Shown in pieces: positions 1 to 3,000 of a stretch of 11,674 nt of DNA. The first letter of the stretch is position 1. Each line of letters starts with the position of its first letter. The stretch is from Escherichia coli (GTDB lineage Bacteria > Pseudomonadota > Gammaproteobacteria > Enterobacterales > Enterobacteriaceae). The DNA lies in assembly GCF_003334335.1 (NCBI RefSeq), contig NZ_QOWQ01000063.1, one strand, 5' to 3'. Position numbers: made by a program.

Positions 1-3000
1 ATGTCAGACAAACTCATAACGCTGGCGAAGATCCTCTGTGTAATTGTCGGCATTTCATTTTCACTAATGCTGGTTGCCATTTTCTTTTCCACCGCCTGGC
101 GAGTCCTGACGTTATCGGGACTGGTGGGGTGAAAGAGAGATGAGCCGTGTTCTGTGTGTGGTGATTATTGTCCTGGCGGGTGGCTGTGGTGCGCTGTGGC
201 TGGCAACAGACCATTACCGCGATAACGCCATCACCTACAAAGCGCAGCGCGATAAAAAAGCCAGAGAGCTGGAGCTGGCAAACGCCACCATTACTGATAT
301 GCAGGTGCGCCAGCGCGATGTTGCTGCGCTCGATGCAAAATACTCGAGGGAATTAGCCGATGCGAGAGCTGAAAATGAAACTCTGCGTGCTGATGTTGCT
401 GCTGGTCGTAAGCGCCTGCGGATCAACGCCACCTGCTCCGGTACCGTGCGTGAAGCCACCGGCACCTCCGGCATGGATAATGCAACCGGCCCCCGACTGG
501 CAGACACCGCTGAACGGGATTATTTCACCCTCAGAGAGCGGTTGATGATGATGCAGAAGCAGCTGGAAGGGGCACAGGAATATATCCGCACTCAGTGCCT
601 GAAATAAGTTTTGCTGATGCGCCGTATCGTCGCAGTATTCCCGCATTAACAGAGACCTCAGCCAGACACTGGACCTCCTGCGCGAGTGTGTGGGGATAAT
701 CAAAAACGATGCACACCGGGCTTTCCACGTTTTCAGGTAACGTGAGCGTTTTCCCGCATGGCCGCCTGTCCGGTGCGGTGGTGGAAGAAACCGGATAAAA
801 CAACCATATTGTGTAAATATCAATCAAACAAGACGCTGCTGTGTGAATTCTGAAAAATCACAGCGGTCATTATGCGTCAGTTTTTAACAGAGGACGTCAG
901 AAAGTGACATGGCAAAGCTGGACTGGAAAAAACTGGAGCAGGCATTCCGACGCGAACATGCCGAAACGGGAATAACATTACTGGAGTGGTGCCGTAAGAA
1001 AAAGATTAATTACAACACCGCCAGAACCCGTATAAAAATGGGCAAAATCGATCATGAAATCGATCATAAAACCGATCATGAAATCGATCATGACATCTCA
1101 GATGAAGAACCCAGCAATGACGCGGGTTCCGACGATGAAAAATGCGCAAAAAATTCTGAAAAAAACTGCGCAAATTCGGCAGAAACGAAACGCAACAGCA
1201 GATCGGGCAATCCTCACCCCGTTGCCCGGTTTAGCGACCGTAACACCCACGCCGTGAGACACCGTGGATATGCGAAGTATCTTGAGGCAGATAACCTCAT
1301 GGATGATGCGTCCGATATGGTGCTGTTCGATGAACTGGTGTTCACCCGTGCCCGCGCACTTTCAGTAACAGGAACACTGAAAAAAATGTTCGCCGACCTG
1401 AAAGAGGCGGCTGACGTGGAAACCCGTGTTGCCCTGTACGACAAAATACTCAAAGCAGAACAGGCCCTTGACCGGAATATTGCCCGTATCGAGTCAATTG
1501 AACGCTCATTGCTGACGCTGGACGTTCTGGCGGAAACAGCACCAAAACTTCGTGCTGACCGGGAAAGAATCAACGCTGCCAGAGATAAACTCAGAGCGGA
1601 AACCGATATTCTGACCAGCCAGCGTCGGGGCGTTGTTACGCCTGTCAGTGACATCGTGTCATCGCTGCATGAAATGAGTAATTCGGGGAGACTGGATGAC
1701 ATTCCGGAAGAATGAACCGCGATGTGATGAACCGTCAGAAATGACCGGGACCGAACAACGTCTGTTCATCATGACTAAACTGAGCAATCCCTGGTGGCGG
1801 CTCAATCATCTCTACAAGATACAGAACGAAAAAGGTGAGCTGGTCACCTTCAGAATGCGACCGGCGCAGCGCCAGTTGTTCCGGAGCATGCACAATAAAA
1901 ATATTATCCTGAAAGCACGCCAGCTGGGGTTTTCCACGGCCATTGATATTTATCTTCTCGACCAGGCATTATTCATACCGCATCTCAAATGCGGGATTGT
2001 CGCTCAGGATAAACAGGCTGCCAGTGAAATTTTCCGCACCAAAATTGCTGTACCGTTTGATCATCTTCCTGACTGGCTGAGAGCCTCATTCACCATCGTT
2101 GAACGTCGTAGCGGAGCCAGCGGTGGCTATATCCTGTTTGGTCACGGCTCGAGTATCCAGGTGGCAACCTCATTCCGTTCAGGTACGGTGCAGCGCCTGC
2201 ATATCTCAGAGCACGGCAAAATTTGCGCAAAATATCCGGCTAAGGCGAAAGAACTGCGAACCGGTACACTTAATGCCGTCTCTGATGAGTGCATTATTTT
2301 TGATGAATCCACTGCTGAAGGTGTGGGTGGCGATTTTTACGAGATGAGTAACCGGGCACAGGAAATCACTGCATCAGGGCTGGCGCTGACGCCACAGGAT
2401 TATAAATTCCATTTTTACGCCTGGTGGCAGGATCTCAAATACAGCGCCAGAGTGCCGGAAAGCGGACTTAAGCTGTCACGGGAAAAAACAGCGTATTTTT
2501 CTGCGGTTGAAAAAGCAATGAACATCACGCTTACCGATGAGCAGAAACACTGGTACATCTGCAAGGAAACTGAACAGCGTGAGGAAATGAAGCAGGAATT
2601 TCCCTCAACGCCACAGGAGGCGTTTCTGACGTCAGGACGACGGGTGTTCAGTGCGGAAAGCACGCTGCAGGCAGAGTCATTCTGTTCGCCACCGCTGATT
2701 GTTTATGACATTGAACCGGTTACAGGAACGAAGACCAAAGCGCAGTCTCTGCGTGACGGGAATAAAGCCGAACAGCACCGGACGCTGATGAATTATCTGC
2801 TGGTCTGGGAGCTGCCGGATCCGGATGAAGAGTATGTATGCGGAGCGGATACCGCTGAGGGGCTGGAGCACGGAGACCGCTCATCGCTGGATATCATCAG
2901 ATGCAGTAATGGTGAGCAGGTGGCTCACTGGTTTGGTCATCTCGATGCGGAGCTTTTCGCTCATCTCATTGCGCAGGTCTGCCGTATGTACAACAATGCG

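Follow-up and report, generated by a model that had tools for sequence, protein, structure and literature searches.

An embedded Rz/Rz1 spanin gene pair of the lambda family in the late region of a 933W/Stx-type prophage of Escherichia coli

The stretch of DNA analysed here, referred to as the window, comprises 11,674 nucleotides of an Escherichia coli contig (NCBI RefSeq assembly GCF_003334335.1, contig NZ_QOWQ01000063.1) and is the late region of a lambdoid podophage of the 933W/Stx type that resides as a prophage in this host. Its segment 140..607 carries two nested open reading frames (ORFs), Rz and Rz1, which almost certainly encode a two-component spanin of the lambda family in the embedded architecture, with Rz1 translated from the ATG at position 360 (ATG360). 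The nested pair is real, intact and far beyond what chance would produce. It is also already known, as the exact proteins are deposited at NCBI and the family has been catalogued. The individual features of the pair, with the evidence on which they are based, are listed below.

140..607 (+): Rz, i-spanin gene; ATG start, 155 residues, stop codon TAA at 605-607.
360..545 (+): Rz1, o-spanin gene; ATG start, 61-residue prolipoprotein, stop codon TGA at 543-545.
149..205 (+): predicted N-terminal transmembrane segment of Rz, residues 4-22; Kyte-Doolittle hydropathy, located inside helix 2-87 of the AlphaFold2 model.
212..400 (+): predicted periplasmic helix 1 of Rz, residues 25-87, equivalent to the first coiled coil (CC1) of lambda Rz; AlphaFold2 model, heptads and an invariant sequence block.
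401..502 (+): predicted flexible linker of Rz, residues 88-121, with Cys99 at 434-436; AlphaFold2 model and alignment.
503..598 (+): predicted periplasmic helix 2 of Rz, residues 122-153, equivalent to the second coiled coil (CC2) of lambda Rz, with Cys153 at 596-598; AlphaFold2 model and heptads.
346..350 (+): putative Shine-Dalgarno (SD) sequence GAGGG of Rz1; 9 nucleotides 5' of ATG360, within the Rz codons S-R-E.
360..416 (+): predicted lipoprotein signal peptide of Rz1, residues 1-19; regular expression for the lipobox and a rule in the style of PROSITE PS51257.
408-419 (+): lipobox of Rz1, V17-S18-A19-C20; regular expression.
375..377 (+): alternative in-frame ATG, corresponding to Rz1 Met6 and judged an unlikely start; weak SD, Met not universal.
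417..542 (+): predicted mature Rz1, 42 residues from Cys20 onwards; Gly21 at position +2, Cys30 at 447-449, PPAPP at 456-470.

Both ORFs were found exactly where the initial annotation had drawn them on the basis of the sequence alone. Rz1 begins 220 nucleotides after the first base of Rz and is thereby read in the +1 frame ((360 - 140) mod 3 = 1). It lies wholly within Rz and extends from 0.47 to 0.87 of the length of the outer gene, compared to 0.48 to 0.87 in lambda.

Over its full length, Rz matches PHROG 13, 'Rz-like spanin' (E=1.5e-75), and it is recognized by the Pfam family PF03245, 'Bacteriophage Rz lysis protein' (E=8.5e-50). Alignment with lambda Rz reveals 70% identity over 153 residues (E=4e-76). 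The exact 155-residue protein is present on 318 public contigs and carries the name 'lysis protein' in E. coli. The highest-scoring 19-residue window on the Kyte-Doolittle scale (2.59) covers residues 4-22 and no other strongly hydrophobic segment is detectable, a profile consistent with a single N-terminal transmembrane domain (TMD) and a predicted periplasmic location of the remaining polypeptide.

The architecture of this remaining part was approached by an AlphaFold2 model of the Rz monomer, which was built on 13 diverse Rz sequences. The model consists of a helix from residue 2 to 87, a non-helical stretch of low confidence from 88 to 121 and a second helix from 122 to 153. Its overall confidence is moderate, with a mean predicted local distance difference test score (pLDDT) of 65.5 and a predicted template modelling score of 0.26; the blocks of helix 2-87 reach pLDDT values between 71 and 82, and residues 93-120 stay below 50. 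A crude scan for hydrophobic residues at heptad positions a and d marked residues 41-62 and 66-87, while the strongest heptad score, 0.80 at residues 121-151, was reached by 24 of 500 shuffled sequences and is used here as supporting evidence only. The first helix also harbours a block of 17 residues that is invariant across the 13 diverse Rz proteins. The modelled arrangement corresponds to the succession of TMD, CC1, linker and CC2 that has been defined genetically for lambda Rz (PMC5295617). With moderate confidence, the periplasmic domain of Rz can thus be described as two helical segments of the coiled-coil type connected by a flexible linker. Two cysteines, Cys99 and Cys153, are conserved without exception in the 13 diverse Rz proteins down to 39% sequence identity and are equivalent to C99 and C152 of lambda Rz, the former of which engages in an intermolecular disulfide (PMC5295617).

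The legacy names 'endopeptidase Rz' and 'phage endopeptidase', which are found in many records, imply a different function of Rz, namely that of an enzyme cutting peptidoglycan or the links between peptidoglycan and the outer membrane instead of a spanin fusing membranes. However, the Pfam search of Rz yielded no peptidase domain and no significant match besides PF03245, and the predicted make-up, a TMD and two long helices with a disordered linker between them, leaves no globular catalytic fold. A PDB sequence search with an Rz profile returned no solved homologue or enzyme related to Rz, but only weak noise resembling coiled coils (ATP synthase b and LytE, E>=0.014). Moreover, lambda genetics assign the spanin and fusion function to Rz (PMC5295617, PMC6139136). 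An endopeptidase activity of Rz is, on these grounds, extremely improbable, and we retain its assignment as a spanin subunit.

The embedded protein is equally well classified. Rz1 matches PHROG 3198 (E=1.7e-31) and the Pfam family PF06085, 'Lipoprotein Rz1 precursor' (E=3.7e-21), shares 70% of its residues with lambda Rz1 (E=3e-26) and is deposited in its exact 61-residue form at NCBI as 'Rz1 family lipoprotein'. Its N-terminus contains a lysine or arginine within the first seven residues, an n-region with a net charge of +2 and the lipobox VSAC ending at Cys20, in agreement with the PROSITE-style rule mentioned above. The residue following this cysteine is a glycine and no aspartate is found there. 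By the '+2 rule' for the sorting of outer-membrane lipoproteins, Gly at position +2 predicts that Rz1 is directed to the outer membrane. The mature polypeptide of 42 residues contains 12 prolines (29%); Cys30 aligns with C29 of lambda Rz1, and the 20 C-terminal residues are near-identical to those of the lambda protein. A natural variation is seen in the proline-rich region, where the PPPPP of lambda is replaced by PPAPP. In lambda, position 34 of the penta-proline tolerates alanine and the third proline has been found dispensable by mutagenesis (PMC5295617). The alanine of the present Rz1 occupies exactly this position 34, the sole Ala-tolerant one, and the variant therefore agrees with the lambda mutagenesis data on the dispensable third proline.

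Taken as a whole, the spanin interpretation advanced by the initial annotation holds for both proteins with regard to the family matches, the TMD, the coiled-coil-type helices, the lipobox and the proline-rich mature region. The alignment to lambda Rz and Rz1 that it had suggested as a check gave the significant similarity described above, and the lipobox rule, likewise suggested, is satisfied irrespective of whether Rz1 is read from ATG360 or from the second in-frame ATG at position 375 (ATG375), which is present as described.

In principle, the frame inside Rz might be an untranslated chance ORF, leaving Rz as the sole gene of this segment; for PhiR12_3 and PhiR5_2, which are the closest phages, GenBank indeed annotates Rz alone. 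This question was addressed with a set of loci composed of 80 related viral contigs, 11 more distant phage loci and the phages PhiR12_3, VT2-Sakai and lambda. In every one of the 92 related loci from which Rz could be extracted, as in the window itself, the inner frame is uninterrupted and retains its lipobox. This check comprises 83 loci and, in addition, L084-L085, L087-L088 and L090-L094; L086 and L089, two Klebsiella phages, were judged by eye. Inspection of their +1 frame disclosed o-spanin lipoboxes of the sequences SVGC and LNGC, which had been missed by the regular expression. Loci with an intact embedded ORF include those whose Rz proteins are just 39-53% identical to the Rz studied here.

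The pattern of substitutions leads to the same result. Among 36 unique close relatives, the nucleotide diversity pi within Rz amounts to 0.0205 in the overlap, compared to 0.106 upstream and 0.089 downstream of it, which corresponds to a five-fold drop. In the same relatives, 12 of the 62 third positions of Rz codons are variable inside the overlap versus 51 of 93 beyond it (Fisher p=1.1e-5), and 8 of the 30 observed substitutions alter both proteins, an under-representation in view of the 244 of 514 possible ones. Because diversity drops and Rz loses its wobble freedom in the overlap, the stretch has to be considered as dual coding; purifying selection on both frames would be expected to leave just this pattern. 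A chance frame would account neither for the specific matches of Rz1 to PHROG 3198 and PF06085, nor for the intact lipobox in distant loci, nor for a loss of wobble variability exactly inside the overlap, and the omission of embedded o-spanins from records is a documented bias of gene callers (PMC6139136). The chance-ORF explanation is already effectively refuted, and we attach next to no probability to it; both Rz and Rz1 are genes.

The initial annotation had left the start codon of Rz1 ambiguous between ATG360 and ATG375. Both codons indeed exist, but the SD sequences and the distant loci allow the choice to be settled on ATG360. The calculated duplex energy with the anti-SD sequence is -6.4 kcal/mol for ATG360, which belongs to the top 10% of the 266 ATGs in the window, and -3.0 kcal/mol for ATG375, which equals their median. 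An ATG situated 18-19 codons before the lipobox cysteine is found in all 13 diverse loci, and the sequences AAGGAG, GAGGGA or GAGAGA precede this upstream ATG (-19 or -18) in the diverse relatives for which this region was tabulated. L086, L087 and L089 lack a methionine corresponding to Met6, and that of L088 is displaced. Furthermore, the exchange of Met1 for lysine renders lambda Rz1 lysis-defective although Met6 and Met7 remain (PMC5295617, Table 3). The 61-residue form of Rz1 is on record, whereas the 56-residue form does not occur in a collection of 15 billion proteins; such records mirror annotation practice and carry little weight as evidence. Owing to the stronger SD sequence, the conservation in diverse loci, the lambda M1K phenotype and the database record, we favour ATG360 as the predicted start.

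Translation from ATG375, beginning with Met6, would generate a 56-residue precursor with a 14-residue signal peptide. This codon is in frame, the PROSITE-style rule is marginally satisfied from it, with the cysteine at position 15, just at the lower limit, and a lysine (K2) in the n-region, and Met6 is kept in all close relatives. However, the last observation is uninformative: both ATGs are retained throughout the 83 related loci, whose Rz frame (E-N-E) constrains these very bases. Against a start at ATG375 stand its weak SD sequence, the loci lacking Met6 in which the upstream ATG and its SD sequence are always there, the lambda mutant and the lack of the shorter form in public databases, so that we consider it quite unlikely and adhere to ATG360. 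The choice would be of little biological consequence, since both predicted signal peptides are cut before Cys20 and release the same mature Rz1.

Nothing contradicts the assignment of the nested pair as a lambda-family spanin, but three points limit the evidence. Firstly, the AlphaFold2 model of Rz is a monomer of moderate confidence, by which any statement on coiled-coil pairing is limited, and the heptad score was also reached by shuffled sequences, as given above. Secondly, an NCBIfam scan (E<=0.001) gave no match for Rz or Rz1, nor for TerS and the small ORF preceding Rz (ORF43, see below); this null result is uninformative because Pfam and PHROGs cover these families. Thirdly, the adjacency of R and Rz known from lambda is not seen in the nearest phage.

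In analogy to the lambda system, Rz would be a type II inner-membrane protein anchored by its N-terminal TMD, and mature lipidated Rz1 would reside in the outer membrane, within its inner leaflet. From lambda homology, the C-terminal regions of Rz and mature Rz1 are expected to bind each other across the periplasm. Each subunit may form a disulfide-linked homodimer, Rz via C99/C153 and Rz1 via C30. Once holin and endolysin have destroyed the peptidoglycan, the spanin complex would collapse, and lysis would be completed by fusion of the inner and outer membranes. A conformational collapse with membrane fusion has been described as the mechanism of the lambda spanin (PMC5295617, PMC6139136). Lipidation, complex formation and membrane fusion are transferred here from lambda genetics to the present proteins. 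Nothing in this Rz/Rz1 allele contradicts a lambda-type mechanism, which we infer on the same basis.

The assignment of the window to a 933W/Stx-type phage is reflected in its nearest relatives. With Escherichia phage PhiR5_2, the window has 99.5% identity along its entire 11.7 kb and 93.9% over positions 1-910, and it shares 100% identity with PhiR12_3 over positions 1-910 and 98.8% over its whole length; VT2-Sakai is 92% identical over positions 1-910. TerS diverges from its PhiR12_3 counterpart from about residue 18 onwards. Since the pattern of identity to PhiR12_3 and PhiR5_2 switches and TerS diverges, the comparison suggests a recombination boundary near the spacer between Rz and terS or near the terS 5' end (window ca. 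900-1100). Downstream of Rz follow terS (909..1715), terL and the genes for the portal, the major head protein and structural proteins. A search of positions 1-1000 for promoter and terminator consensus sequences found none, with no sign of an internal Rz1 promoter or of a terminator after Rz, and a scan of the whole window at the Rfam gathering thresholds revealed no RNA family.

The holin and endolysin genes are located upstream of the window and outside it. In both PhiR12_3 and VT2-Sakai, holin and endolysin precede Rz, and terS follows it. PhiR12_3 (PV340552.1, locus L001 of our set) encodes at L001 2903-3647 a holin of 68 residues, which matches PHROG 9876 and PHROG 20, and an endolysin of 177 residues, which matches PHROG 7. 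BLASTP comparison of PhiR12_3 S with lambda S (E=19) and of R with lambda R (E=5.3) revealed no detectable similarity. The gap of about 490 base pairs between R and Rz in PhiR12_3 contains two small ORFs, one of 48 residues (PHROG 1115, unknown function) and ORF43, and in VT2-Sakai ant is positioned between R and Rz; the junction between R and Rz seems to be a hot spot of insertion. The 'lambda-like lysis cassette' of the initial annotation thus needs a restriction: the spanin module and the gene order are lambda-like, but S and R lie beyond the window, are unrelated to those of lambda in PhiR12_3 and are separated from Rz. Judged by homology, the lysis cassette is mosaic overall, with the spanin module as its only part of the lambda family.

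Several ORFs surround or overlap the spanin genes. ORF43 (window 1..132, plus strand) would encode a hydrophobic polypeptide of 43 residues (Kyte-Doolittle value 2.87), ends 7 nucleotides before the Rz ATG and matches PHROG 4906 (unknown function). A homologous stretch is present in 51 of 94 loci, mostly 6-11 nucleotides upstream of Rz, and nearly all variants retain the ATG, those of the VT2-Sakai type beginning one codon earlier (MISDKL...; 43-44 residues). A strong SD sequence, AAGGGAGG, is found upstream of ORF43 in relatives. A frameshifted C-terminus in 5 loci and the even distribution of variable sites over the three codon positions (26/25/25) argue against coding. The exact protein occurs on 977 contigs and is always termed 'hypothetical'. 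It is conceivable, yet unlikely, that ORF43 is not a passenger gene but a small membrane protein expressed together with the spanins and acting, for example, as a modulator of lysis timing or spanin activity.

Between Rz and terS, the window contains a conserved spacer of 300 base pairs (608..908), which might serve as a pac region or as a regulatory element. In the RefSeq record of VT2-Sakai, an ORF of 87 residues in this spacer (NP_050547, orf48) is labelled 'Rz-like spanin', a label shared by PHROG 6954. A 2-bp indel splits this ORF in the window into 595..699 and 758..853, which are in different frames. As a candidate for a second spanin-like gene it was rejected, being devoid of a TMD or a lipobox and broken here by the indel; its spanin label is probably an annotation error.

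On the minus strand, ORFs run across Rz at 235..507, 353..823 and 531..827. The one at 353..823, of 156 residues and antisense to the 3' half of Rz, matches with its residues 74-156 PHROG 17757 (unknown function, E=7e-44). The matching part is antisense to nucleotides 356-604, which is almost exactly the Rz/Rz1 overlap plus the 3' end of Rz. Most likely, PHROG 17757 is a family built from antisense ORFs that were miscalled where a dual-coding stretch is strongly conserved. A minus-strand ORF of 186 residues at 8419..8976, which overlaps the plus-strand structural genes 8446..8907 and 8831..9454, matches PHROG 19479 (unknown function, E=5e-31), probably another family of antisense miscalls. Within terS, two tandem repeats of 12-bp units are located at 1045..1097 and, in weaker form, at 1138..1174. 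The former comprises 4.4 copies with 87% match and encodes (I/T)DH(E/K) tetrapeptides, KIDHEIDHKTDHEIDHD. The N-proximal TerS segment bearing the repeats is conserved in VT2-Sakai and replaced by unrelated sequence in PhiR12_3.

For the annotation of such regions, the Rz/Rz1 pair provides a firm coordinate anchor at the point where the lysis region ends and the packaging and head genes begin. In the GenBank entries of PhiR12_3 (PV340552.1, 4140-4607) and PhiR5_2 (PV340546.1), Rz is termed 'endopeptidase Rz' and Rz1 is left unannotated; many Stx-phage records likewise name Rz 'endopeptidase' and leave Rz1 out. Gene callers are known to be biased against embedded genes (PMC6139136). The missing Rz1 and the 'endopeptidase' label are known systematic annotation errors that can be corrected from the present analysis, and beyond this matter of annotation quality the importance of the pair in the window is small. 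As the spanin pair in this 933W/Stx-type prophage region is intact and complete, the step that disrupts the outer membrane at lysis should be functional.

Compared with known spanin systems, the pair most directly parallels Rz/Rz1 of lambda. Besides the 70% identity of each protein, both systems share the same +1 embedding and relative position, an Rz1 N-terminus with two methionines, a 19-residue signal peptide followed by Cys20 as the lipidated residue, the pattern of periplasmic cysteines, the proline-rich region and the near-identical C-terminus of Rz1. They differ by one-residue insertions in the linkers of Rz and Rz1 of the present pair, due to which C152 and C29 of lambda correspond to C153 and C30 here. 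Further deviations concern the proline stretch (PPAPP here, PPPPP in lambda), the lipobox (VSAC versus VVGC), position +2 (Gly versus Thr) and the end of Rz (QCLK versus QCR). In addition, R overlaps Rz in lambda, whereas the 43-residue ORF precedes Rz here.

The relationship to the Stx phages of the 933W type (VT2-Sakai, 933W and Min27; Sepvirinae) is closer still, with 92-94% DNA identity over window positions 1-910. VT2-Sakai Rz is 93% identical at the protein level and occupies the same position between the R region and terS. The differences are allelic only; for example, Rz1 carries L14 instead of the P14 of most relatives, and its C-terminus reads SPSESG and not SSSENG. The o-spanins of 933W, VT2-Sakai, Min27 and other Stx phages have been grouped into the 'Lambda' family of embedded o-spanins (Kongari et al. 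2018, PMC6139136). The embedded spanins of the HK97/P22 type, represented by mEp235 and phi191, display the same architecture, belong to the same Rz family at about 50% identity and also possess an ATG with an AAGGAG SD sequence 19 codons before the lipobox cysteine. Their mature o-spanin, in contrast, has another sequence (CKSPPPVQSQRPEPAAW...), and the HK97/P22-type o-spanin is placed in a different o-spanin family by Kongari et al. (PMC6139136).

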